A DNA stretch of 64,000 nt from Haplodiscus bocki (Eukaryota): positions 29,698,001-29,762,000 of the forward strand of contig OZ296649.1 of assembly GCA_965655095.1 (NCBI GenBank). Direction: 5' to 3'. The position numbers and the translations under genes are program-made. This document shows, in pieces, positions 42,588 through 63,480 of this stretch. Under the pieces are notes generated by a model. It was not told the DNA's origin, searched no databases, and saw only the letters and a program-made list of their open reading frames with translations. Numbering within the stretch: the stretch's first letter is position 1; each line of letters opens with the position of its first letter.

Positions 42588-43989
42588 ATCCGTTTCAGCC
42601 GGTTTTTTTAATTTTGTTACATTTGCAGTTCCAGGCACTTTTTTCTTGGCTTCTCTGATTTTTCTCTGATGCAAACTGAGTGCTAGAACTCGGAACCGCT
42701 TCTAACTAAACGAAAATAGTCTATGTCATAATTTTTCTGGCGGAGCATCGCCATTTGAGCAGAGCAAATTCACTATCGATTTTCATAACTCAGGCGATTT
42801 CCATCTTCGTACCAAAACTGCTAGATTAGATCAAAGATTAGTTCCAGTTTTTATACTGAGATTTTTTCTTAGATTGTATAGAAGTGCCTGTTTAAATTTG
42901 GTGACTGTCTCCGTGAGGTGGTGTTTTTCGTTCGAAAAGGCATTCCGTACGTTTTTTACTCAATATTTTCCTCTAGCCTCCGGTCCATTCCCGCTCGCCA
43001 TCCCGTGTTATTCTTGTCGGTTTATTCAAGCACAAATTCCACTCGATTTTCAGTTAGGGTCCGGTGCGGGAGTCAATTGGTTTTCTGCACTCCGCACTCC
43101 TCCGACAACATTACGTTACCCATTTCCCTAAATCACTTAATTTGTTACCTTTTGCGTTTCTGTAGTCTCGTTTGCGCGAAAGAACGTCAAGTTTCTCCTT
43201 GGGAGCCGCTGCCTGGATTTACAACTTTTGACTTTGAATGAACGCCTCGACTGTTTTGCCGTCCCATTCTCCCACTGCACTCGCAATTCTGCTCACATCC
43301 GCTCCCCTACGTACCGAGTCGAGGTCAAGTTCCGTAACAATCGCGCCCGCTTCGTGTCGTTAAAAGCTCTGCATTAAACGTCAAAAGCTCCCACCGATTA
43401 CTCGCCTCTCCGTACCCTCCCGTCCCTTCCGCCTCCACTTGATTACGTCGAAGTTTTTTCAGTTTCGGAAAACACACACGCTCCCGCTCAGTTCACATTC
43501 CTATCTCATGACCGTTTCATCGTCGCGCTTCTGTGTATTTGTGTCACCTGTCTTCTCTGTCGGTTTGACTTTCGCGTTGTATCTCCATCTTCAATAGTTA
43601 ACTCGGATGATCGGCACTACTGTCATTCCTCTCATATGGTTGTTTTCCGCCTCATCTCAAATTGCCAGTGGTAGTCTACGAAATCCACAAATCGACGCTT
43701 GTGCTTCGCCTTCTTCCAGCTAGTCTTTTGAGGAAAAACTGTTGATCTTAGCCAACACTTATGCCTCGACCGATCTTCATAAATGTCTGAATGTCTATCG
43801 AAAGGAAACTGTCTTTCCTACTGAGTTCCACGAACATCAACTTTGTGAAGTACTTGACTATATGTTCTTGAAGTTTTGCTAGCTTTTGACTAACCTTGCT
43901 TGTTTAAAACTTCCAAATCTTGACCTTGACTACCCCTGCTCATAACTTCTGCTGCTTTCAATCTCCATGTTTGACAGGTCTTACGAACT

Positions 43990-45304: not shown

Positions 45305-46071
45305 CTACTTCGGATCCTCTGACTGAATAAGTCTATGTAATTGCCCGAGAAACCACATTCTTTCGAGCTGGTCATGAGGCTGGGATCCTGGGTGAGCTAC
45401 TCACTTGGAGTTTAGCGGAGAAATCCGGGGGTGTTTTTGAACCTTCACCCGCATATTGCAAGAAACACCAGCTATTGGCCTTCAGTTCTCTTCGTTAGTC
45501 TGCGGTGATGATACCAGCTCGCCTCAATAATCCTCGTGCAGATGTAACATTCTACTAGGGTACTTCGATGGTATGTTTTTCCGTGATTGGATCCGGGGAA
45601 ATGGCGGCAATGACTCGAGTCATCGCAAACCTACCTGACAATCCTCCAGGCCAGGTTCCTGATTGGTACTACGTTAGGGAAGTGTTGAACCACACTCATT
45701 CTTCCATGGATCCCGAACTTCATTCACGGTTTGCGTAGCTCCTTTGAACAATTTCAGACGTTCTCGAATTCGGAATGGGATAATTGTAAGCGCAAGCATG
45801 GTCGGCACAGGATGGACCTTCATCCAGGCTTAAAATCGTTGAAGTTACCCAATCGCCGATTGCTAAGGAATTCCAAAGCGGATTTACATCAAAAGTTTGA
45901 CTAGTTGATAGAACATAATTTTGATAACGCCATGCCACAGTTCTCATAGCTCACCCGCTGTGATGGTTCCGACGAAAAATGGCAAACTCAGATTGGTTCT
46001 CGGTTATCGACAGCTGAACAAGTAGGCTGTCAGTCAATTCCTGCTGCCTGATACCAAGGAGAATTTTTTGA
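45305..46071 (+). pseudogene. pol: pol fragment, first copy (PR-RT linker and RT N-terminus), truncated
   Basis: SSPAVMVPTKNGKLRLVLGYRQLNK (RT SP..LV.KK.G..R..DYR.LN motif) at ~45948-46022; near-identical to 49254-50019; breaks into monomer sequence at 46069-46071. Confidence 0.85.
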
Positions 46072-49000
46072 CAAAATCAAACGTTTTAAGACGAATTTTA
46101 GCCAACTTTACCTGAAACAAGTGGTTCCCTCGAATGTGCACGCTGCGCTACGTTATAGGCCTACTGGATCCGAAAAGATGATCTAATATGGTTAAATCTT
46201 CGTTCAGTAAGGAATCTTAGTTGTATGGTCTTTCAACCAGGTTAGTACCCCTTGTATCTTGTATCCTCAATAAAAAAGCAGAAGGAGGAAGAAGTCGTTT
46301 CTTTAAAGAAATTTGAAGGAGTTTGGCCCTGGCAAAACGTTCGAATGGAGGATAGCGTGTAGTGTGTTGAATTTTTTGAAAAATAATCAAGTAATTCTCC
46401 GTTTATACCATTTAGTTTTGGAACCAGTGCTTTTAACAAAAAGTTCAGTTTGTTCTCTCTCTCTCAAGAAGGTCACCTCGTAACCCCCTCGTGTCCGGTT
46501 GGTTTTGATATAAATTGAAATTCCTGGTTGAATCCACCTTAGCTTTCCTCCGAATTCTCCTGACGTCACGTGGTCTTTCCAAACGTTACGATTTCTACTC
46601 TTTTTTAATTTTCTGACACAGAATTGATGTGTTGTTTCAGGTCTTCTCTTCCAGGTGCATCTTGCGCTGCTGATGCTAATTGTGGATCCGTTTTCTTCCT
46701 GTTGGAGCCACAAAGCGGTTATCTCCTTCGCCTGTACCCTCAAACGGAATTCCTTCGCGTGTGCCCAGCTTTCGGTTCCCGGGAGCAGTCCTTTGTTCCG
46801 ATGTCAACAATCTGGAGCCCGCCGGATCCGATGACTTCATTCGCTGTTAATACAGAGCCAATGAAATTCATATGCGTCTTTTTGTCCGCTTCGCCCATCC
46901 CTCCTCTAGTTATTCCGGATACTCGGCATTTTGCGAGGCTAACCTCTCCTATACCGACGCGATCCGTATCATGTTTTACTGACTCGGCTGTCGACCGTGA
47001 ATTTGCTGCCCTTCTCAAGTATACCGATAAACTGGATTCCTTTCGAGTTACTCTTGGCGCTGACAGAGAGCTCTTTCTCCACCTCGAAAACAAATTCCAC
47101 CGCCTTCAGGAAATTTTGGAGATGACGATGAAAAAACTAGAGGCGAAGGTTATTGACAGCAGCATATTTGAACGGAATGCCAAGGTCCTTACAGCATTTC
47201 TTTCTGATCTCCGACAAGATATTGACATTGAGGGTCTTGAAGCCGATCGTGGCTGAGTTCCGATGATCCATGACCTTGTGGCACCTTTGTACCACAGTTC
47301 CCGTATTTCTTGATGAAGTATACCCCTCAGCTGCCTTCTACAAGCTTTTAGGTTTTAGTCGAGATGCCTCATTGCCGATGTTCATCAAATTTCCATATTT
47401 GGATTCCTTCATGCCATACCGGCAAGCATACGCACTTCTACCTCCACATAGATCAGCGGCTCAATCAAGTTTTATCAAAATTTGTCTGACAATCGCAACC
47501 GCCGAACATGCAACTGCTGTGCCATTAGTGCAGTTAACCGAAGCAGTTGCGGTTATTTCTGTCGCCTTTGCAAGCCCCGCCCCTAAAACGAGTTGTATGA
47601 TCATTATTGGAACTAAAATGGTGCAAGGACCCATTTCCTTGAGAGAGGGCACTTTGGAACGGACTTATTTTAAAACAATTTTTTCATCACCTGTACAATT
47701 GTACGCACATCTATACGAACTACTTTTTTTATGCAATTGCAGTGATAATTCAATCCCTTGATGCAAAATAACGACTGGGAATAGGCCTGATATCAAAAAC
47801 TATGTTTCTTTCTTTTAATTTGTCCCAACACGTTTTCATCACCCTTCTTCGTTCCCAATGAGTAATAGACTAAACGCACATGACTTGTCACATGAGCTCA
47901 CCTAAATCGATTTGCAGTTTTAGAATACCTTCGTATTGAAGTGTTTTTGCAACTCATCCCTTATTTTAGCTGCCAATCGTTGTGCACCAAACTAGACCCG
48001 TAAGCGACTTACCGACAAATATCTTGCTTTCTGGATTTTCTCTACTTATCATACGAGCAGAAAACATCAACACTATAAACATTGCAACGATGTTTGAGTT
48101 TTTCTTCGTCAAGTTGATCCATTTTTGCTGTTTTACGTAATTTTGATGACAAAATCAAACGTTTTAAGACGAATTTTAGCCAACTTTACCTGAAAGAAAT
48201 GGCTCCCTCGCATGTGGACGTTGCGCTACGTTGTAGGCCTATTGCATCCGAAAAGATCATCTAATTTGTTCAAATTTTCGTTCAGTAAGGAATCTTCGAT
48301 GTATGGTCCTTCAACCAGCTGAGTGCCCCTTGTATCTTGTTTACTCAATTTAAAAGGCACAACGGTGAAGAAGTCGTTGCTATAAAGAAAAATGAAGGAG
48401 TTTGGCCCTGGCAAAACGTTCGGGTCGAGGATAGCGTCTGGTGTGTTTAGTTAAAAAATTTTTGGAACAAAGTAATTCTCAGTTTATAACATTTAGTTTT
48501 GGAACCAGTGCTTGCAAGAATAAGTTCAGTTTGTTTTCTCTCTGAAGATTGTTACCTCATAAACCCCTCGTGTCCTGCTGTTTTCATATAAATTGATTGT
48601 CGTGGTTAAATCCACCGGAGCTTTCCTCCGAGCTCTGCTGACGTCACGTAGTCTTACCAAACGTTACGATTTCTATTCTTTTTCAGTTTTCTGAAGCAGA
48701 ATTGATGAATTTGTTGTTTCAGGTCTTCTGTTCCAGGTGCGTCTTGCGCTGCTGATGCTAATTGTGGATCCGTTTTCTTCCTGTTGGAGCCACAAACCGG
48801 TTATTTCCTTCGACTGTACCCTCAAACTGAAACCCTTCGCGTCTGCCCAGCTTTCGGTTCCCAGGAGCAGTCTTTCTTTGTGCCGACGTCAACAATCTGG
48901 AGCCCGCCCGATGCGATGACTTCCTTCGCTGTTAATACAGAGCCAATGAATTTCAGATGCGTCTCTTGTCCGCTTCGCCGATCCTTCTTCTAGTTATGCC

Positions 49001-49117
49001 GTATGCTCGGCATTTTGCGACGCTAACCTTTCCTATACGGACCCGATCCGTCTCATGTTTTACCAACTCGACTGTCGACCGTGATTTTGCTGCCTTCTGA
49101 AGGATACCGATAAACTG
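46069..49117 (+). repeat. Second block of ~1.5 satellite monomers inside the retroelement
   Basis: Mostly matches 39.0-41.6 kb at offset 7502 (39768/47270, 41235/48737, 41282/48784). The first ~400 bp match the 30.3-30.7-kb variant (ORF 46242 = ORF 30506). Confidence 0.95.
46624..47256 (+). CDS. Uninterrupted copy of the accessory ORF
   Basis: 210-codon frame, near-identical to 39128-39754. Confidence 0.4.
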   Translation: MMCCFRSSLPGASCAADANCGSVFFLLEPQSGYLLRLYPQTEFLRVCPAFGSREQSFVPMSTIWSPPDPMTSFAVNTEPMKFICVFLSASPIPPLVIPDTRHFARLTSPIPTRSVSCFTDSAVDREFAALLKYTDKLDSFRVTLGADRELFLHLENKFHRLQEILEMTMKKLEAKVIDSSIFERNAKVLTAFLSDLRQDIDIEGLEADRG

Positions 49118-49255
49118 TATAGAAGTGCCTGTTTAAATTTGGTGACTGTCTCCGTGAGATGGTGTTTTTCGTTCGAAAAGGCATTCCGTACGTTTTCTAC
49201 TCAATATTTTCCTCTAGCCTCCGGTCCCGTCCCGCTCGCCATCCCGTGTTATTCT
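49116..49255 (+). repeat. Duplicated leader fragment (copy of 42875-43014)
   Basis: tgtatagaagtgcctgtttaaatttggtgac...cccgtgttattct, constant offset 6241. Confidence 0.92.
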
Positions 49256-50645
49256 ACTTCGGATCCTCTGACTGAATAAGTCTATGTAATTGCCCGAGAA
49301 ACCACATTCTTTCGAGCTGGTCATGGGGCTGGGATCCTGGGTGAGCTACTCACTTGGAGTTTAGCGGAGAAATCCGGGGTTGTTTTTGAACCTTCACCCG
49401 CATATTGCAAGAAACACCAGCTATTGGCCTTCAGTTCTCTTCGTTAGTCTGCGGTGATGATACCAGCTCGCCTCAATAATCCTCGTGCAGATGTAACATT
49501 CTACTAGGGTACTTCGATGGTATGTTTTTCCGTGATTGGATCCGGGGAAATGGCGGCAATGACTCGAGTCATCGCAAACCTACCTGACAATCCTCCAGGC
49601 CAGGTTCCTGATTGGTACTACGTTAGGGAAGTGTTGAACCACACTCATTCTTCCATGGATCCCGAACTTCATTCACGGTTTGCGCAGCTCCTTTGAACAA
49701 TTTCAGACGTTCTCGAATTCGGAATGGGATAATTGTAAGTGCAAGCATGGTCGGCACAGGATGGACCTTCATCCAGGCTTAAAATCGTTGAAGTTACCCA
49801 ATCGCCGATTGCTAAGGAATTCCAAAGCGGATTTACATCAAAAGTTTGACTAGTTGATAGAACATAATTTGATAACGCCATGCCACAGTTCTCATAGCTC
49901 ACCCGCTGTGATGGTTCCGACGAAAAATGGCAAACTCAGATTGGTTCTCGGTTATCGACAGCTGAACAAGTAGGCTGTCATTCAATTCCTGCTGCCTGAT
50001 ACCAAGGAGAATTTTTTGATACTTTGGATGGAAGTTGTTTCTTATCAACGAATTACATGCCATAGGGATTCTGTCGGCCCCCGTAAGAGAGAGTGGTCAA
50101 AAATAAAGAGCGTTCAGTTGTTTGTTCGATTCCTTCGAGTAGCTCGTTATGCCAATGGGTCTCAAGTGCAGTCCTCCCGTTTTCCCATCTCTGATGAAAA
50201 AAGTCCTAGTTGGCCTTACGTGGAAAAGCACAATTCCCCACCTACACTGTTGCCTTATATTCTCTCGTTTGGCTGAGGAACACATTGAAAGACTTCTCAA
50301 CGCTTCAAAGACGACCTTGAAAATCAATCCGCCTGAATAGGAGTTTTTGAGAGATTATCTGCCCTTGTTGGTCACATTGTCAGGCGAGATGGAATTACGG
50401 CTGATCTAGCTGTAACATCAGCTGGCGATAGTGTCCGGAAGCGGAAACGCTTACTGAGGTTAGAATTTTCGTACTCTGCTCATACTACCAACGTTGCATT
50501 CGCGTTTTTCTAGCCATTGCTCGACCTCTTCATTAGCTCACGGACAAAATGAAAGGTTTCCGCTTGAGCCCGGAAGCCTAACTGGCTTTGGAACAATTGA
50601 AAGATTGCCTCACCTCGCCACCTATTTTACCCTAACCTTCCATGA
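49254..50645 (+). pseudogene. pol: pol, second copy: Gypsy reverse transcriptase remnant
   Basis: GKLRLVLGYRQLNK, EIFDTLDGS, MPMGLKCSPPVFPSLMKKVLVGLTWK (YxDD position degenerate), LVGHIVRRDGITAD, IARPLH, LKDCLTSPPIL. Confidence 0.92.
50637..50645. repeat. Target-site duplication CTTCCATGA (left)
   Basis: The same 9-mer occurs at 56037-56045. Removing the insert rejoins ...TSPPIL..PSM-KEPFIVFYDAS of pol. Confidence 0.9.
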
Positions 50646-50794
50646 TATATATCCTTCAAGTCCCAAGTAGTTGCGCGATAGTTTCATCAGACGGAATTTT
50701 CGACTGTTTTTGTAGTTGGCAGGTTGTGGAGTTGGTCGTTGTTTAAGTGCTCGAGGATTTGGGAATCTTCTATGATTGTGATCAATTCTGTGAT

Positions 50795-53700
50795 CTAATC
50801 TTCGTCGTAAATGTCACGGTTCAAGTATTTGTCTGATCTGTGTGCGAGGTATCTCTCATACTCGAAGAGGCAGTGTCTGGAAGATAGTGCTAATGTTTGG
50901 CATTTGCAATTTCGTGAGGGCACTAAGCTACAATTGAAGGTGTAGTTTGGAAGGCTTTGACGCGTATCGAGTAGTAATCTGGGGATTGTTTTGCCTACAT
51001 TGAAAGAGCAAGACTGACGCAAAGCGATAAGTCTGAGTTTGGCTTGTTAGATTGGTACTGGTGTTAAACTAGTTTGCTCAGAACTTCATAGTCTTCTGGG
51101 CCATGAGTGCTCAACAATTGATAATATATCTGCTGGGTTTTAGTTTCGTCTACCGCAATTTGTGATTTTTTGAAGTCCTTCAGAATCGCGACGTCTTGGT
51201 TCACATTCTTGTCTTGAGACTCCACTACACAGCTTTTCAAGTTATCGTTTGACTGCATAAGTTTTTTGAAGCATCTTGCTGTCAGTGTCTCACAGTGGAG
51301 GTCTAGTGGGTGTGTCCCGGCTAAAATTTCAGCAACGCAGTTGCTAGTCGATATTGGAACACCTAACGCTTGCTTGACATTTCTGTTTTTGAAGTGTGAA
51401 GGGTGCGAAGATTTTTCCATGGCCACACTGGCGTTGCGTATAAAATTCTTGCCAAGAAGACATTAAAGTAGATTGTGATCATCGGTTTGGTGCCCAATCC
51501 CTACTTGAATCCAACGTGCTTAGCCATTGACTGAAAGTGATACTGAGCGCGTCTATTCGTGTTATTTGCATGGGATTCGAATAACAACTTGGAGTCAAAT
51601 TCTTGAATAGAGTCAAATTGAAGCTACGCCAAGAATCCTGCAGCTATCGGAAACTGTGACTGTTTTACTGCCAATTTTGTGTGATGGAAGCTTACCATCT
51701 ACTAACATGGTTAGAACCAGTATAGATTTCTCTACGTTCATTTTGAGCCGCCACTTGGTGCACCGTTGGATGAATTTCAGAAGGGTTTTTCTTGTTCAAT
51801 CGTCTAATTCGACTTTGGTGTCTACGCTGATCAAGAGATTACCACCTATTGCATTTTTGAAATTCTCTGCTTCTGTTCTGGAAAACATTTCCCAAACAAA
51901 AATGATAAACAAAAGCGCTTAGAGAACTGCACCCTGCGGTACTCCGATGTTGTTTCTGAACGTTTCACTTTTCTGGTCGCCAATTTCAATGTAAAGACAG
52001 AGTCGAATACTTTTTGAAGGTCCAATGATATCAAAGCGCCCACTCGCTTTCTCGCCGTCAAGTTTCTGCATTTAATCATCAGTCAGTACAGAAGGCGTAC
52101 GGTGCTTTTGCGTTTCCGAAATCCTTCTTGTTCCGCATCCAAAATTCCCTCTTGTTCCACATCCAAAACTCCCTCTTTTTCTGCAAAGGCTCGGATTTTT
52201 AATTGTAGCGCGCGTTCGAATAGTTTTCCAACGTAGCTGGATAATGTGATGACGTGGCATGACCAAGGTCTGGAGTAGTTCATTTTTCCTTGTTCCCGAA
52301 GAAATAAGACTTTATTGGTTTCCCATAGCCTGCTTTTTTTCCTCTAAGCATTTGTTGAACCGTTGAAGCATTAGTTCCCTGGAACTAGGTCTAGTACTCT
52401 TTAGCATCTTGGGGTGATAATTGTTTGTGTCAATAGCTTTGTTGGCAGTGAGGAGTTGTTTGATTGCGTAGTTTATGTCTTGCCAACTCAGCGGGTCGTT
52501 TTATTAGTGCGTGTCATTCCAGCTTGTAGAGAGTTGTTCCATCTATTCGTTGATCGAGTCATTCAAAGTGTTGTCCAAGTGAAACTGTGTCATGTGCTTT
52601 CCCATGAAGAAGATTTCCCGCAGTAATTAGTCTTGCTCGCTGTTTTAATGAAGTAACCTGACTCCTTCTTCAATGGAGCAGTGCCTTGGCTAACATCGGT
52701 TTTGTACACTTTACCCACGTTCTGCCAGAAGTTTCGAGCCTTAGTCTCAACCCGTTTAACAGTGAGTTGGTCCAGTTGTTGGACTTTCCTATCAAGAAAC
52801 TTCTGAAGATGCCTTGTTCTTTCAAAACATTCGTTTCTTGGTGTGCATCTAATTCGATAGATCGTTCTGTCGGTCCGCAGCAATTGACTGGCTTCCTTGA
52901 GTTCTTGCTCCAGAAAGGTTTCGAGTGCATGCAACACCGTTTCATGAGTTCGCTGTGTGCATCGTTTAGAAGCTCTTTTGTCATTTACCATAAATTTGTT
53001 TCATTTTTTGTTTCTATTCAGGGCCGCACATTTGCTTTGTTTCAAGTTTAACTTTCCGAGCATCCCAGTTTGCTGTAGGGATGTCTGGTTCCTTTGAGAT
53101 TTCCTTTTTTTGGGTGGCCGGAGGTCTATTGCGCTCAGTACTGGTACGTGTCCTCTCCTGAGAGCTCCGGTGAACAATTCCACTTCATCGTTCATCGTCA
53201 ATGTAATGACGCATCGGTTTTGCTTTCACTTTTGAAAAGAGTAAACGGAAGTCGATAACACTTTCCGTCGACTGACTAGAAAGTGGGCACATATGGGCTT
53301 TTTTATGTATAAGCTCTGAATTGATGATAGAAAATTGTCAAGCAGATTTCCGTGATTGTTGAATTTAGCATCATGCCACATTGTGTGTCTGGCATTGTAG
53401 TCACCTGAAACCTAGCGGGCCCTAATTGTTTGTTTTACTGAAATCTGAGGCTTTCTCAAAGTCTTGTGGAAGATCATCATCTGAGTCTCGCACTCTGGTG
53501 TTTTGTATACAGATGCTACTAAAGAAAAACATTACAAGTAGGCAATAGAGCAGACGGCATCAACTTCGTTTGTCTTCAGATCGTGTATTTCACAAAACAA
53601 TTAATTTTTCCTGATGAGCCGGCTCACTCCTCCCTTATTGCGGTTATGGCAACTCGGTAGTACTTCGAAGTTGGCAAACTCATCGTTGGAGATAGTTCTG

Positions 53701-53830
53701 TGGGTTTCTCCCAGAGCTATAAGTTGTGAGTGTGTGTCTTGCAGGTATTTGTTCAGCGCAACTACCTGGCATGATAAATCCGTAGGTGTTTAGCTCTAGG
53801 AACTTTACTGTCAAAGTATTAGGATTCATT
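50795..53830 (-). pseudogene. LINE ORF2 remnant: apurinic endonuclease + reverse transcriptase + C-terminal Cys/His motif
   Basis: APE: QLIALGETH, NKGGVS, VASVYKTP, GDYNARH, SVID, GHVPV. RT: ITLSSYVGKLFER, QEGFRKRKST, LISLDLQKVFDSV, GVPQG, LKMNVEKS. C-terminus: NCKCQTLALSSRHCLFEY. Confidence 0.9.
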
Positions 53831-53849
53831 TACAGCGTCGAGTATTCGT

Positions 53850-55930
53850 TGCTGAAATTTTTGTGGTTTTGGCTGGTTGCGACTCTCATAGATTTTCTTT
53901 ATGGTGATCAGAATACCGGGCAATCCCTGGAGTTTGAAACCTTTTTTGTTCCACAGTTAGCGCACCCAAGGTTTTCCGTTTGAGTGCAGTCGTTGGTTCG
54001 ATGGGTTTGCTGGCAGTTCCTGCATTTGACACTCGCTCGACATGTTTTTGCAATGTATCAAAACTTCTGACATCTGTAGCATCTTGTGACTCGAATAAAT
54101 TCCGAGTGCTCGTACTTCTCTGGGCGATACAAATGCTTGGACAATAAGATTCCTTCCGCAATGAGTTCTCTTTCCGGTTCTCTGAAGTCAGTTTTCACAG
54201 TGTTCAACTTTTTCCCCTCTTTCGTTTTGAATCTGCGTACCTCAGAGTCTTGTTTTTTTATGCTGTAGCTCGACTCAATTTGTTGACTCATCGGTTTCTG
54301 CGAACAATTGGTCAATTGTTTGATCGGCAGAAAGTGTTTCGTATCTTGGGCCGCTGGTAATCTTCCTGCTGTTTTTGATCGCAGAAAGGTTGGGTTTCAG
54401 TTCTCAAGGACGTCTGTCCCGTCCTGTTCGTTGTCGAACTCCAATTGTAGATTGTTTTGGCTGTTGCGGAAGGCGTATATCAGTCTTTTTCATGGGACGA
54501 GTTCGAAAAACCTTTTTCTGATTACTGGGCTGTTCTTTGGGTTGCTTGTGTTGGCGTTCGTAATGACCACGCTTTCCTTGTTGTTTCTCTGAGGTTTGGG
54601 TTGTTGATTTTTTGTGTTTTGCTGCTCCGTGACAACTTGATTCTTTTTCGTGACATTTGAATGTCACATTCGTGTTCAAAATTTCACTCGTTTCCTCGAA
54701 GGAAGTCATTTTGTTTTTCATTTCAGCGTTGGTTTTCTGCACCTCGTTGCAGGTGTCTTTCTCTGCGCTCATCTCACTTTTCGCAGACTGAATCTCAGTG
54801 GCAGTTTGGTGACGTTCGTTTGACAAATCTTTGGCCTTTCTAGCGCTCTTTATTATTTCTATAGCTTTTTGGATGTGCAGTTTCTCATTGTGTATGCCAG
54901 CTTCGAACATCGATTTGGCCTAACATAGCAGTTTTTGCAGCACCATTAGGATTCGGAAATTTGTCGTGGTTTCATGTTGTACTTCGTTCATGCCAACACA
55001 TGTGATGTGAAACCATACGTCACAGCCGTCGCACTGAACGTAAAGTTCTTTTTTGTCGGTGAGTTTCCCGAATGTTTTTTGTTCATTTCTGACATCTGTC
55101 GTTGCTCACTGAGGAGCTTCTGTTTTTGGTCTTTTTGCCCAATCCTTTGTGACATCTGAGCCCCACCAGAGTAATTAAACCCCAGGTGTATCACACAAAG
55201 AACTAGGAAGTAAGCAAACCAGTTGCTAACTTTGTTTTGTCTCGCTGTGTCTTTTCTGAGACTTCTTTTTGTTTCTTGGTTTGTCTTTCTTGTGGGAGAT
55301 TTTAGTGAGGTCGTCATCGCGACGCAGAACAGTCGCTGCTAAGTTCAGCCTCGAAGCTGATACAGGATGTTTTTGTTTCAGGTTTCGACAGTTTTTCTCG
55401 TTTCTTCGCTTACGCTTGGAGACGCTTGTCTTCTGACGTCAATTATAGGAACGCCTGCTTTTTTCAGTTCGCCGAAGATGTCAGTTGATCCTTCTCGTTG
55501 CACGTATAGAACTACAGCTATTTTTGGTGCTTTTACAGGACTTGGACCAGTTCGTTGAGAGTCAGCGGGGTGTAGTGTTTCTGCTGTGGGGCGAAGCACC
55601 CTGACTGATGATGTCGTGCCAAATGACCTGTTTTCCAGATGTTCTGTTGGCTAGTCTGCGAAAGTTTCCGTTTACTAGGAGGTGCTTCAAGTTTTTCAGG
55701 GGGTACCAGTGGCAGAAACTGAGACCTGGTTTTGTGAAGGACCTGTAGTCTCTTGAAGACGTGATAGGAGTTCTGGATTGCTTGATGCAGGGAGTTGGTT
55801 CCCAAAACGAACACCATGAACCAGTCGACGGGAGTTTACGTTGAAGGTAGAGGGATTGAAAAAATTTGGACGTTGAGAGATAGATGACTTCACCTGTCCA
55901 TCCGCTAGGAACAAACAGGACTTTTGATAA
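53850..55930 (-). pseudogene. LINE 5' ORF(s): SGNH-esterase-like block, PHD finger, coiled coil, three CCHC-type knuckles
   Basis: CLFLADGQ (~55900) and VFVLGTNSL (~55800); VQCDGCDVWFHITCVG...WCCKNC (55040-54928); RCYRCQKF*YIAKTC, KCRNCQQTHRTNDC, GCANCG (54085-53950). Confidence 0.8.
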
Positions 55931-56036
55931 TTGTTCGTAGAACAGTGATTCAGTCCCTCACCTATTTGACTGAAAGTACACTATTTCCAAACGGGGTTGG
56001 AACGGTCTATATAATAATTTTATCACAACAATTATG

Positions 56037-56045
56037 CTTCCATGA
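56037..56045. repeat. Target-site duplication CTTCCATGA (right)
   Basis: Matches 50637-50645. Confidence 0.9.
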
Positions 56046-56405
56046 AAGAACCATTCATCGTCTTTTATGACGCCAGCCAGTTTTCCATCGGCGCCGTCCG
56101 TGCTCTAGTCCGGAATGGCCTCGAGCGAGTCATTTGCTATGCTTTCGAATATCTCAGCAAAGCCCAAAGTCGCTATTCGACAACAAAGCGAGAACTTTTA
56201 GCTGTAGTCAATAAATAAGACAATTCAAGGTTTACCTTCTTGGCCGACAATTCAAGATCATTGTGGACCACGGAGCGTTCCAGTGGTTCCATAAATTGAA
56301 AGATACAGACGCCTTGACTGCTCGTCGCCCTGGAAAACTCGCCACCTTCGACTATGAGATTGAACACCGAAGAGGTAAAAGCATTGGACATGCTGACTGC
56401 TTGTA
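56037..56405 (+). pseudogene. Gypsy RNase H remnant
   Basis: KEPFIVFYDASQFSIGAV, RVICYA, AQSRYSTTKRELLAVV, GRQFKIIVDHGAFQW, FDYEIEHRRGKSIGHADCL. Confidence 0.93.
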
Positions 56406-56709
56406 ACGACCCCCGGCAACAGCCACCGCTCTTCACATGACTATAACCATAGACGTTGACCCTTCGCTGACGGGCAGCCGAACCCCTCCTCGCAAAATCT
56501 TCCTTCTTCAAACAGTCAATTTACAACAGCACCACAGTCGAATTGCACCACCATGCCACGGGAAACCGATGAGAATAATCGGACTGATGATGAGCGGGCT
56601 GATGTCGAGAAAGGCTACAAAGCCAGTGCAAATAACGATCAGACTGATTATGAGCAGTCTCAGGTCGAAAGAACCCATAGAGACGGAGCAAACAAAACAG
56701 TATCACAAT

Positions 56710-57090
56710 TCACAGTAATCGAACAGCAAGGAATTTGGCTGGATGCTCGACATTCAGTCGCCGACTGTATTTTAGCTGATTTCAAGCTGGGGGCTGGTCT
56801 CGCGAAACAAATCAAAGAAAAGTTTCCAAGTTTTTTCACGACGGAAACGAGTACAAGCGATAGGTAGTGCACGAACATTACTCGGGTAATGATAAATTTG
56901 TGTTTCATTTGATCGTCAAACCGCGCTATACTCACAAGCCTATTTACCGCTCCCTGAGAAAAGCATTCGCCAATTTTCTTTCTCATTTGAGTTTCTACCG
57001 AATCGAAAAATTCCGTATTCACATCTATCATGTGGCTTGGACAAACTTGATTGTAATGACTTAGAAAACATAATTCTTGAAACTATCCGG
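56710..57090 (+). pseudogene. TARG1/OARD1 (Poa1p-like) macrodomain remnant embedded in pol
   Basis: IEQQGIWLDARHSVADCILADFKLGAGLAKQIKEKF / KFVFHLIVKPRYTHKPIYRSLRKAF / SCGLDKLDCNDLENII match the successive TARG1-family motifs (AHCIS.D..MGAGIA..FK.KF; YYLITK....KPTY..L; P.IGCGLD.L.W). Confidence 0.85.
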
Positions 57091-57169
57091 GCTTGAAACC
57101 TCGAAGTAACCGGTTTCACCCTACAAACGTCACCAGAAAGCACCACACATGGTGATCGAAACCCAGCAA

Positions 57170-58270
57170 CAGATTTACAGAAAACACAAGATACTGGGAT
57201 AAATCAAGTTTTTACTTGGGCACCAAACAACTCTCGTCCTCCCCTTTCCCAGCTTCAGTTTCTCTCTGTCAATGTATGGAAGCTTTGGAATCTTTCTGAG
57301 GAGCTCACAATCTGCCACGGCATTCTCAGCTGGAAGCAAGAAAATCTCAAACCTGTCAAATGGGTTTCGAACAACTCGTTCTGCCCGCACTAGTTCCAAC
57401 ACATACTCCCTTCCTTACTTGTCTGACAACCCCTTTGCCCTTCTCTGAGTAACCAAGACTTGAGAAAAAATACGCTCCCGTTTCTATTGGCCTGAGCACA
57501 AACGATGCCAGTGTTTGTGGCCAGTTGCTTTGTTTGTGAGAAACGCAACAGTCCCCAGAAGAAATACATCCATAGTCTGTGGGCACGGAAGCCCAGTTTT
57601 TCCTTCCCAACGGTCGGTATTGACTTCTTAGGCCCACCAGCTCTCTCCGGAAGAAGTCACTACATTCTTTTGATCATTGATCATTTCACCTAGTGTCGTG
57701 GAGCAGTGGCGCTACCAGATGAGTCAGCTCCAACAACAGTCAAAGTCCTCGTGGAATATTGCATCACCCGCTTCGGCTGCCCCGAGAGCCTTCACTCCGA
57801 CCAAGGGCGTAACTTTGAAGCCTAACTTTTGACAAGCCTGAAAACTCCTCCAAATAACTGAAAACTCGCACAACCGCTTCCCATCCACAATCCAATGCCG
57901 TTTTAGGAAGGTCAAACTGTACGCTACACGAAATGTTGACTAAAACGACCGACGAAAATCAACGCAATTGGTCTGAACGCCAAGGGAAGCCACGTGGACT
58001 AACTGTCGTGAGTTTTTTGCTGTAATACGGCTTCGCTTCCTAAAGGCCGGCGAGCTGGCTCTTCAGCATATGCAGGGCCAACGAAATCGGCAACATGCGC
58101 CTTGTGACTCTGAAGTACTTGACCCTACATACACCGTAGGCCAATTGATCTTCCTCCATAGTCCCATAACTCCCGAAGGACTGAGTCCAAAACTTCATTC
58201 TTTTTGGCGTGGTCCTCATGAAATAAGTCATCAGCGAAGTGACTCACAAACTTTGCGAGGTAGAAACAAA
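57170..58270 (+). pseudogene. Gypsy integrase remnant with GPY/F-like motif
   Basis: RFYWP, VASCFVCEKR (HHCC cysteines), VGIDFLGP, YILLIIDHFT, RFGCPESLHSDQGRNFE, RTTASHPQSNA, VGQLIFL...SPKLHSFWRGPHEI. Confidence 0.95.
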
Positions 58271-59199: not shown

Positions 59200-61260
59200 C
59201 TAGTAACATCATACATTTTTGTTTTTTTTCCCAGTGACAACAGTCTTCTGGTATCTTCCCGTTGTTTATAGCCGTTTTTGTAAAGATTTCGCAACTTTAT
59301 ACTCAAGTACACCTGTTTTGTTTCCAATGTTCCACTGGGTCAGTTTCCCTGATGGTTCTCCTGCAGATGGCACTCCAATCATCCAGAAAGGCGATGCATT
59401 AATACATAACTATCGAGCTGTCACTTCGGAGAGCGAAAGCAAAGTCCGTCTTTTCTCCCTTCACACTACCGCCGTCAGTTGATCTAACAGCAGTCGCTCC
59501 ACTCATTGAAATTGTCAACAATATCCGAAATTGTTTGAGCTCCTTGCATTTTGTTCAATTGGTTGCTTCTATCGAAAACGGCTCAATCGCTATGTTTAGA
59601 TCACAGAGTCGTGCTGATGGCCTCAGGGAGAGTGTCTAATATCGTATACAGCTACTAGAGGATGAATATTTTGGTTTTGCAAAGGATTATTCTAAACTAT
59701 ATCGTCTTTTTTCGAGCCACCTACGATGGAGCTTCCCTCCTTTCAGTCTCGTCACCATCTACCACGACGACTTTGCCCGCACTCATGGCGGCTTTTGGTA
59801 TCGCTGGTCTTGTCCTAGGAAACCCAATACGAAACCTGCCGGCAGAGCCCTCTCCAGTTTTTCAATCTATGCAGTGATAACTCCGTTTTGAAGAATAACG
59901 TGCGCAATTCGCTCCAACGTCAAGACAATTCGAGCAGTGTTTCCGTCGTGTCCCCAAAACTAATGACAAGGACTTCTTCCTTCTGGGTTGAGACATCGCT
60001 GTTACCCAGACGATAGTTCAAGCCTTACGAGATGTCACAGATGCCTGTCTAAATGCCACATGAGAATCAGTTCAACTCAGTTCACAGTTAAACATCATGG
60101 GTGAATGTCCAGCGTAAATTCGAACTCTTCGTAGATAAAGTCCATATCTACACGTCTTCTCCGGATGGCGCTCATTTGCACTTAAAATCTTACCGTGCTT
60201 CGTTTGTGTCGCATAAAAGCTCGATGTTTTCTGCTATGTTCTCCCTCTCCTCTGGTTTTGTCGCACCCAGATTCCTCACACCCGACCAACTCGTTGCGAT
60301 TGTTGACGACCTTACTGAGGAACAGATTCGAGCAGGTACGAAGCTTGCCGCAGCCATTTAACTTAGTTTTGGGGTTATTTACTATGAAATCCAAATTGTA
60401 ATCGAACTCACTGTCTTACAGGAAGGCCTCTCCATCGTCTGGGGTATACCAATGAATTGAAAATAGTCCACCTTATTCTGTTCTTTATTTTTCTCATGAG
60501 TTCCTGGCTTTTGCTACTGATAACTCACAATACGCTGAATTGAGTGCTACTGCTCTCAATCACTGTGCTGGAACAAATCGCATTAAATTGAGCCGAAAAG
60601 GTTTTTCGACCACCACGGATGAAACCTTTCCCTGTTGGACGTCTCTATTTTATGAGTGCAGAATCCCAGTTCTTCGTTAATGTTTAGTGGACTCTGTCTT
60701 GTTGCGGGAAACCCCGTAAGCTTCGTATTCAGCGTATGGCGTTCACCACGTCATATTTCGTACTCCAGTTTTACAGGTCCAGAACTATATCGATGGCTTA
60801 CCTCTGTTCATATCCACCCTCCAGTGTCAAGCCTGTCTTTTTCGACCCAGTTTTTTGTCAACCCTCACCTATAACCATGGAGATCTCGTTCATACCCCGA
60901 ATATGGCTTTTTGTGAAACCCGGTCCGAACCTTTGATTGCATCTGTCAACCTCGCCGCTCCTTTGGCCGCAGTCTCCAATTCATTGCCTCCCACCAGCCC
61001 CGTTCTGAAGGTGAAATCATCTGGCGAGGCGCGCCGTTAAATTGTTTCCGACCTACAGTTGGAGCTCGCCGCTCTGCCCCACGTCTAACCAATGACCTCA
61101 GAAGATCTTCGCACAGTGGCCCAACCATTTTCGCGATTTTACACGGCTGATTCTGCTTCTTCCAGCCGTGCTCTAGCAGATTACATGTCTATGCGGTTTG
61201 CTTTTTCATCGGCATGCATATCCATGACCATTTTCCTCTTGCAATACAATCATCATTATG
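59200..61260 (+). pseudogene. env-like membrane glycoprotein remnant
   Basis: Third coding region after INT. Hydrophobic N-terminal stretch, Gly/Ala-rich LPALMAAFGIAGLVLG (fusion-peptide-like), amphipathic helix then SLSSGFVAPRFLTPDQLVAIV, a Cys-rich region (HCAGTNRIK..KGFSTTTDETFPC; CQ...P) and a C-terminal hydrophobic segment MRFAFSSACISMTIFLL. Confidence 0.7.
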
Positions 61261-61310
61261 CATATTGATTTTCGTGTTTAAATCCACTCGAGCTTTCCTC
61301 CAAGCTCTGC

Positions 61311-61322
61311 TGACGTCACGTG
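61311..61322. promoter_or_regulatory. Overlapping CRE (TGACGTCA) / E-box (CACGTG) motif, also present in many monomers
   Basis: TGACGTCACGTG is seen directly; function untested. Confidence 0.3.
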
Positions 61323-61393
61323 GTCTTACCAAGCATTACAATTTCCATTCTTTTTTAAATTTTCTGACCTAGTTGATGAATTTGTTGTTTCAG

Positions 61394-61965
61394 GTCTCCT
61401 CTTCCAGGTGCCATCTTGCGCTGCTGATGCTAATTGTGGATCCGTTGTCTTCCTCTTGGAGACACAACCTGACCATCTTCGCCTGTACCGTCAAACTGAA
61501 ACCCTTCGCGTGTGCCTAGCTTTCGATTTCCATGGGAAGACCTTATTCGTGCCGATGTCAACAATCTGGAGCCCGCCGAAGCCGATGACATCCTTTTCTA
61601 TTAAAACAGAGCCAATGAATTTCAGATGCGTCCCCTGTCCGCTTCGCCCATCCCCACTTTAGTTGTGCCGGATGTTCGGCTTTTTGCGACTTTAACTTCT
61701 ATGCTGACCCCATCCGTCTCCTGTTTTACCGACTCGACTGTCGACCGTGAATTTGTTGCCCTTCTCAAGGATACCGATGAACTGGATGACCTTCAAAATA
61801 CTCTTGGCGCTGAAAGAGCGCTTTCTCCGCCTCGGAAACAAATTTCACCGCCTTCGGGAAAGATTGGATATCACGATGAAAGAATTAGAGGCGAAGGTTA
61901 CTGAAAGCAACATACTTGAACGGAATGCCAAGAACCTTAAAGCAAAACTGTGACTGATCTTCGAC
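61394..61965 (+). pseudogene. 3' accessory ORF of the element (frameshifted), preceded by a splice-acceptor-like site
   Basis: Pieces 61408-61662, 61626-61904 and 61747-61953 together give the same protein as 34972-35598; upstream lies ttttctgac...ttgttgtttcag. Confidence 0.6.
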
Positions 61966-62066
61966 ATGCAGTCAATCAACGAGATTCCGGCCATTTCTGG
62001 CGCCTTTGCAACCCGCGACCTATTTACGAATGGTGGAACTAGAATGATGCGAGGACCCATTTCGTT

Positions 62067-62078
62067 GAAGGAGTGGAC
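62067..62078 (+). promoter_or_regulatory. Polypurine tract
   Basis: gaaggagtggac lies immediately before TGTCCAAC; the monomer equivalent is gaaagaggggac/gagagagggcac. Confidence 0.65.
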
Positions 62079-62636
62079 TGTCCAACGGACTTGTTTTCAT
62101 TTTTTTATCACCTGTACATTTGTACGCACATATATATGAATCCCTTTTTTTATGCAATTGCACTAATAATTCAATCCCTTGATGCAAAATAACGACTGGG
62201 AATACGCCTGAATTCAAAAAGTATGTATCTTTCTTTTAATTTGTCCCAACACGCTTTCATCACCTTTCTTCGTTCCCAATGAGTAATAGACTAAACGCAC
62301 GTGACTTGTAACCTGTGCTCACCTGAATCGATTTGCAGTTTTAGAATAACATCGTAATGAATTTCTTTCTTTGCAACTCATCCCCTATTTTAGCTGCCAA
62401 TCCTTGTGCACCAAACTAGACCCGTAAACGCCTTACCGACAAATAGCTTGCTTTCTGGTTTTTCTCCACTTATCATACGAGCAGAAAACATCAACACTAT
62501 AAACATTGCGACGACTTTTGGGTTTTTCTTCGTCAAGTTGATTCTTTTTTACCTATTTTTGATGATAAAATCAAACCTTTTAAGACGAATTTTAGCCAAT
62601 TTTACCTGAAAGAAATGGCTCCCTGGCATGGGGACG
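62079..62636 (+). repeat. 3' LTR (~558 bp)
   Basis: Starts TGTCC after the PPT and ends GGACG (imperfect inverted terminus, expected GGACA). The end point coincides with the end of homology to 42031-42559. Confidence 0.75.
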
Positions 62637-62641
62637 TTGCG

Positions 62642-63480
62642 CTACGTTATGGGCCTATTTGATCCGAAATATGATCTAATATGGTTAAATCTTCGTTCAG
62701 TACGGAATCTTCGTTGTTTGGTCTTTCAACCAGCTGAGTGCTCCTTGTATTTTGTATCCTCAATAAAAAAGCTCGAAGGGGAAGAAGCAGTTTTCTTTTA
62801 GAAAATTGAAGGAGTTGTGCCCTTGCAAAACGTTTGGGTCGAGGATAATCCATGGTGTGTTTTAGTTCTTTAAAGAATTTAGTAACAAAGTAATTTTCCG
62901 TTTGTACAATTTAGTTTTGGAACTAGTGCTTCCAAGAAAAAGTTCAGTTTGTTTTCTCTCTCAGGAATGGATTTTGTGGATGAAACAATAGCAATATCAA
63001 TAGCGCTTTCAGTCGTTATGGTTGTTTGCGTGTTTTTTTTAATTATGCACACTTCGTTTTTCCGCTGCAGTGTCTGTTTTGTTCAGACTTTCAATTTTTT
63101 TGAAGCTTTAGAAGTGTTACTGTGATAGAAGCTAAGTGAGCTCTTACCAAAAATTGGCTTTGTTGAAGCTCAAGATCTCAAGAACATTGAGGTTGAGAAA
63201 TTGAGAGCAGAAAGAATTGTTTCTTCGACTTTTTGATAAGATCGAGGTTTTTTTCGGTGAAGATGAGAACAATATTCAGTTTAAGATCCCCATTCCATGA
63301 ATGATCTTTTTTCAACATTTTTTAGGACTTTTTGGCAGATTGTGATCCACTTCATATAAAAGTATTCTAGATTCTATGCGCTCAACTGAAACTTAAGAAC
63401 CCACCCGAAGACATGATAAGCAAGTTTGGACTCAAATTTCATTTTCTTTGAAAACGCTCGTTCTTCCAAGATTGTCATGT
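62642..63480 (-). pseudogene. Possible decayed minus-strand coding sequence in the flank
   Basis: A stop-free frame ...TTITTESAIDIAIVSSTKSIPERENKLNFFLEALVPKLNCTNGKLLCY* crosses the monomer boundary at 62962; further short frames lie upstream. Identity unknown. Confidence 0.3.

Follow-up and report, generated by a model that had tools for sequence, protein, structure and literature searches.

Among mobile elements, macrodomains have been mentioned for non-LTR retroposons. Acidic residues, thymidine and the ends of nucleic acids can all be freed of ADP-ribose by the enzyme TARG1 (excerpts of PMC7050489 and PMC8883491), and host ADP-ribosylation is countered by viral macrodomains (excerpt of PMC7729036). 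Fish epsilon-like endogenous retroviruses (ERVs) occasionally encode macro domain proteins, according to an excerpt of PMC4977317 which cites Basta et al. 2009. For the Pol proteins of Ty3/gypsy elements, the 2026 survey by Chary and Hayashi, which covers 1,512 elements, describes a 'bridge' that holds a pseudo-RNase H and mini domains (excerpts of PMC13524379); in those parts of its text and supplements that were searched, neither a macrodomain nor ADP-ribose is mentioned. Likewise, a full-text literature search (subscription journals, Repbase, GyDB and CDD lying outside it) returned no description of a macrodomain in Ty3/gypsy Pol, and none is given in the excerpts of PMC4695847, PMC7729036, PMC8195603, PMC10221186 and PMC11642819. 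The enzyme class and the idea of a viral eraser are known, and a TARG1-class domain in the bridge of a Ty3/gypsy Pol appears to be undescribed in the literature searched.

The window, by which we mean the whole 64-kb stretch of DNA analysed here, carries a macrodomain of the TARG1/OARD1 class in the pol spacer between RNase H and integrase. It lies after an acidic linker, extends from about 56706 to 57126 and consists of three colinear pieces on the plus strand in three successive frames. The initial annotation had placed three colinear TARG1-class motifs at 56710..57090, between RNase H and integrase and behind an acidic linker. The motifs and their position were borne out, the flanking domains being recognised by Pfam (RNase H and rve), and so was the locus; its 3' end had been set too early. 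The features of the element are as follows.

49806..50640, plus strand: reverse transcriptase (RT), decayed, the upstream part of the macrodomain-bearing pol (tblastn with full Pols)
50646..56036 (ends approximate), minus strand: LINE-like element inserted into pol, where it separates RT from RNase H (Pfam matches to PHD, E 5e-8, to an endonuclease, E 8e-4, and, weakly, to RVT_1, E 0.03)
56033..56409, plus strand: Ty3/gypsy RNase H (Pfam RT_RNaseH over 56018-56409, E 4e-12 and 5e-5; tblastn)
56410..56705, plus strand: acidic linker, variable, with two copies of a short DDEQ-type repeat (translation, relatives)
56706..56852, plus strand: macrodomain piece 1 (frame 3, profile positions 4-54, 27.5 bits; PDB top match OARD1)
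56858..57013, plus strand: macrodomain piece 2 (frame 2, profile positions 60-108, 27.6 bits; PDB top match OARD1)
57007..57126, plus strand: macrodomain piece 3 (profile match 57007-57111, frame 1, profile positions 107-141, 14.1 bits; PDB top match OARD1)
57127..57420, plus strand: integrase lead-in; may correspond to the 'mini domain' known from Ty3/gypsy Pols of the ancient type (shares a frame with the macrodomain in P0001 and P0021; weak)
57449..57971, plus strand: integrase zinc finger and core, decayed (tblastn; Pfam rve E 6e-6)
59207..61265, plus strand: decayed env-like ORF, putative (3' of integrase; matches the C-terminal part of P0002)

Judged by its sequence, the host element is a decayed Ty3/gypsy (Metaviridae) retroelement. 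A Ty3-type RNase H is present in the order RT, RNase H, integrase (Pfam, tblastn), and the relative P0002 matches Ty3 Gag-Pol (E 5e-12). RT and RNase H lie 5.4 kb apart in the window pol, whereas full Pols are continuous across this gap: P0160 aligns with its residues 290-578 at 49806-50640 (residue 578 at 50638) and resumes from residue 577 onward at 56033 (tblastn), and the alignments of P0011 and P0077 cover both flanks. The LINE-like insertion at 50646-56036 has a candidate 9-bp target duplication (50637 and 56037) and carries a PHD finger in its ORF1. Downstream of RNase H, the DDEQ-type linker repeat occurs in one to five copies in seven relatives and in none in two. The integrase lead-in was modelled together with the macrodomain in P0020; the model is poor (mean pLDDT 38.6), the lead-in appearing as a helix and three short strands with pLDDT 52-73.

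The outer parts of the element are less clear. It had been called env-bearing at the outset, and a decayed ORF does lie at the right position (59207-61265), with putative env-like motifs; the label found no env match in Pfam, PDB or the ESM Atlas. The types of element present suggest an animal host. Neither gag nor protease had a Pfam match in the window fragments scanned. The segment 42000-42428 matches 62048-62475 (81%) and the two are LTR candidates, yet both sit in a tandem array with a 2-kb repeat into which both element ends run. This array has units of about 2.0-2.08 kb in 22-23 copies (window positions 1-42428, 46062-49120 and 61264-62967), its inner copies being 92-100% alike, and the unit resembles the sequence just 3' of the env-like ORF; the array is possibly an LTR-derived satellite. 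Within the unit one frame stays open for up to 215 aa (46609-47256, 61282-61950), two fragments of which, at 61605-61950, had no meaningful Pfam match. There are also two recent internal duplications, one 99% identical over 767 bp (45305-46071 and 49254-50019) and the other 97% over 140 bp (42875-43014 and 49116-49255), and both flank about 1.5 array units inside the element.

How well is the macrodomain in the window copy supported? A profile of 116 TARG1-like domains, made without element-derived rows, was scanned against 1278 six-frame tiles covering the whole window, and this locus was its sole find: the next match scored 4.2 bits and the best score in five shuffled windows was 6.0 bits, and the three pieces together span profile positions 4-141. 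In a PDB sequence search human OARD1/TARG1 ranks first for each piece alone (E 0.35, 0.006 and 0.23); these single-piece matches are weak, and the pieces are colinear. Pfam Macro, on the other hand, matches none of the window pieces, which may explain why such domains get overlooked; it does match many homologues. The LIVK lysine (equivalent to Lys84) is found in piece 2 at 56918-56920 and the GLD aspartate (equivalent to Asp125) in piece 3 at 57040-57042, as had been predicted, and both positions are kept in the alignment to the human TARG1 chain. We take the human residue numbering to be that of chain 2lgr minus an 8-residue offset. The second catalytic residue is written as Glu125 in an excerpt of a review (PMC7050489), and is Asp in the human chain. 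The domain is nevertheless broken: its frame is lost twice, near 56855 and again near 57010, a stop interrupts it at 57094, and two residues of motif 1 that hardly vary in the family are altered. This copy is a dead fossil, and its value is that of a pointer to the domain class.

This leads us to the relatives. A search seeded with the middle macrodomain piece returned two proteins. In P0002 a single ORF runs from RNase H through the linker into a macrodomain that is nearly complete (TARG1 E 2e-12), and P0001 combines the macrodomain's second half with the integrase zinc finger. When the P0002 domain was searched against 1.84 billion representatives, 1391 matches were obtained at E<=0.001, and the best 150 of the 1391 were used. 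By identity and flanking matches, at least 19 close relatives with the domain belong to the window's family among the matches listed, to which the window's own fragment (P0145) adds a further row; all were gathered with the macrodomain as query, a search to which members without the domain are invisible. RNase H and macrodomain share one ORF in P0002, P0011, P0077 and the sister protein P0014, and macrodomain and integrase zinc finger do so in P0001, P0020 and P0021. Such in-frame fusions, found by macrodomain query, exclude a one-off insertion, in agreement with the view that the domain belongs to the element. As for the intact in-frame copies that were to be looked for, partial fusions do exist in family relatives, and an intact full-length Pol of the family was found in none of 36 candidates (985-2810 aa), which is weak evidence of absence. 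In P0002, the macrodomain is also joined in frame, at residues of about 402-562, to the middle of the env-like ORF, apparently through an internal deletion.

Conservation within the family points in the same direction. P0002 and P0014 are 74% identical in RNase H, 27% in the linker and 42% in the macrodomain, and judged by these values the macrodomain has been retained while the neighbouring linker diverged. Among the matches listed, the catalytic Lys is kept in 14 of the 17 family rows that cover the site and the Asp in only 4 of 8, these being decayed copies; in a sister subfamily both residues are kept in all four rows listed, and further diverged subfamilies with the domain occur among these matches as well. 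On a domain tree from which 12 decayed rows had been removed and in which a third of the non-element rows was kept, 14 element domains of several subfamilies fall on one branch (SH-aLRT 94, not starred). The AlphaFold model of the P0002 domain has a pLDDT of 90.4, and in a structure search with it TARG1 occupies ranks 1-8 (TM 0.85, 28% identity), followed by DarG and Poa1p; the model was folded from an alignment that already was TARG1-like.

The domain also extends beyond this family. P0048, a distant match with RNase H followed by macrodomain, was used to search for longer proteins and gave 510 matches; among the best 120 of these 510, 105 showed both the end of RNase H and the zinc motif of integrase and form our sample of insect-type Pols, which is macrodomain-enriched through the query and provides no prevalence estimate. 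A bridge macrodomain was detected in 26 of the 105 among the matches listed and in none of 630 reversed or shuffled decoys, and the same 26 were obtained whether or not 12 element-derived rows were part of the profile. Iterating the profile added two more decayed bridge domains, for an end point of 28/105. Both catalytic residues are present in 18 of the 26 domains among the matches listed, and 17 of these 18 proteins are single ORFs of more than 950 aa with YxDD. In the remaining 8, Lys and/or Asp are lost from domains still in long ORFs, which suggests a non-catalytic role there. Decay is graded, down to barely detectable forms (P0199, P0209, P0225, P0190 and the bridge of P0169), and the domain is absent from 77 of the 105 sampled Pols among the matches listed, and is thus dispensable. 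Named carriers include Lampyris noctiluca errantivirus 1 (P0154, with the domain at residues of about 470-611) and, from Harmonia axyridis, LOC123676417 (P0170, residues of about 574-713), and the aphid proteins P0174 and P0219 have a macrodomain after RNase H. Precomputed Pfam Macro assignments exist for 4 of the best 120 of 510 rows, so automatic annotation has occasionally flagged the domain. The feature is real, stable in its family and also present in intact insect errantivirus-type Pols.

Its history is harder to read. RNase H identity between the window lineage and the insect group is 40-46%. On the RNase H tree, for which the careful search was incomplete and some rows labelled 'none' are truncated proteins, presence and absence are patchy, with nine label changes of which only two are forced by starred (strong) branches. 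A single origin of the window-lineage and insect domains is compatible with the data (p-AU 0.775); the trees, built on short alignments, do not separate one capture from several. TARG1-like domains also occupy other polyprotein sites, for instance after the protease in P0023 and after an integrase zinc-finger fragment in P0054, with a further case in P0018, and P0169 has an intact one at its N-terminus, before the protease, in addition to the decayed one in the bridge. Among non-element matches, TARG1-like domains are fused to SLOG, XPG, PNK3P/FHA and NADAR (P0034, P0128, P0036, P0141 and P0151).

What could such a domain do for the element? We give about even credence to the following reading: it is a Pol-borne eraser of the TARG1 class, captured by a Ty3/gypsy ancestor and kept by selection, which lifts a host restriction based on ADP-ribose. 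The starting points are the fold, class and position of the domain, its in-frame fusion in relatives, the preserved catalytic pair and the retention across diverged lineages. In an ancestor of the lineage, an ADP-ribosyl hydrolase of the TARG1 class would have been taken into the Pol polyprotein, right behind RNase H, and then maintained by selection. From established Ty3/gypsy biology we infer co-packaging: a domain produced within Pol would accompany RT and integrase into the particle and the pre-integration complex. If active, it may there remove ADP-ribose placed by host PARPs or ARTs on element proteins, RNA or new cDNA, and if this tag serves defence, its removal would lift a restriction on reverse transcription or integration. 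The known viral macrodomains that erase ADP-ribosylation of the host come from RNA viruses and are of another class; a TARG1-class domain with the catalytic pair kept in Ty3/gypsy Pols, those of intact insect errantiviruses among them, points to an action of ADP-ribosylation on the replication of invertebrate retroelements, a question that natural intact domains make testable. More broadly, and here we are doubtful, ADP-ribosylation might be a widespread, unrecognised restriction on invertebrate LTR retrotransposons and ERVs, the bridge eraser of TARG1 type an old Ty3/gypsy counter-defence module common to the window lineage and insect errantiviruses and acting on ADP-ribosylated cDNA, and some of the unnamed 'outlier' bridge domains of the 2026 survey its decayed forms.

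An eraser need not be directed against a defence. It could instead let integration and repair run to completion by clearing the ADP-ribose that damage PARPs leave at integration gaps or on the ends of cDNA, and we consider this unlikely but worth taking seriously. DNA breaks and DNA ends that bear ADP-ribose are sites of TARG1 action (excerpts of PMC4695847, PMC7050489 and PMC8883491), the macrodomain adjoins integrase, and the class that was captured is that of TARG1 and not the MacroD type found in RNA viruses, viral macrodomains ranking below TARG1 and DarG in the structure search. Most sampled Pols, however, integrate without the domain, and its patchy presence (nine changes, only two of them forced) and decay fit conflict dynamics better, if weakly. 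It is distinctly improbable, in our view, that the domain is an ADP-ribose reader which, in the manner of a chromodomain, anchors the integration complex on ADP-ribosylated chromatin or at DNA breaks. The class does have reader members (excerpt of PMC7050489), viral macrodomains are known in which the domain was kept and the activity lost (excerpt of PMC10221186), and 8 of the 26 insect-type domains among the matches listed are without Lys and/or Asp; yet the catalytic pair is kept in most lineages, and the domain also occurs away from integrase, as in P0023, where it follows a protease, and in P0169, where it is N-terminal.

Two further explanations were weighed. The graded decay seen in P0199, P0209, P0225, P0190 and the bridge of P0169 would suit a passenger or folded spacer with no role of its own, but active-site motifs kept across several subfamilies (the 14 rows on one branch with SH-aLRT 94), next to a reshuffled linker, make this a slender prospect. 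Finally, the element does hold other insertions, and a retrocopy of host TARG1 might have landed in the window copy alone; with at least 19 close relatives carrying the domain, several of them as in-frame fusions with RNase H or integrase, this deserves next to no credence.

Among known systems, the Pol-borne domain is closest to human TARG1/OARD1/C6orf130 (ALC1-like class; PDB 4j5q/4j5r/4j5s), its top match in both sequence and structure, with Lys84 and Asp125 kept. Human TARG1 is a stand-alone cellular enzyme, whereas the element domain is embedded in Pol and is a hydrolase by prediction from its sequence. The next structural match, the bacterial DarG antitoxin (TM 0.81-0.83), shares the catalytic Lys with the element domain (excerpt of PMC7050489); the latter has a second acidic residue that is absent from DarG, and the partner DarT is not among its neighbours. 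A DarTG toxin-antitoxin pair was considered and rejected, as the adjacent genes are RNase H and integrase and no ART family was found by Pfam among the window fragments scanned. The macrodomains of coronaviruses and alphaviruses likewise sit inside a viral polyprotein and serve as the model for the counter-defence reading, but their class is another one (15-16% identity, at rank 18 and lower) and they belong to RNA viruses that are not reverse-transcribing. The endogenous retroviruses of teleosts (Basta et al. 2009, via an excerpt of PMC4977317) also bring a macro domain into an LTR-type reverse-transcribing element; their carriers are epsilon-like Retroviridae with additional ORFs, a comparison made by description only.

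A match in position is provided by the errantivirus Pol 'bridge' domains of Chary and Hayashi (excerpts of PMC13524379), which occupy the matching stretch that separates RNase H from integrase in Ty3/gypsy elements with env across animals. The bridge domain common in insect errantiviruses was rejected as a macrodomain (hhalign probability 0.4%, with iteration halted at 28/105 bridges), and we infer that it is the pseudo-RNase H of that survey; in 11 Pols the macrodomain precedes it as a separate unit. The two-domain bridges 'A D D' and 'A D B' and the outlier types E and F in supplement 5 of the survey, as excerpted, may be macrodomain-bearing Pols. Our analysis thereby names a domain in a region of Pol that a recent dedicated survey described only structurally.
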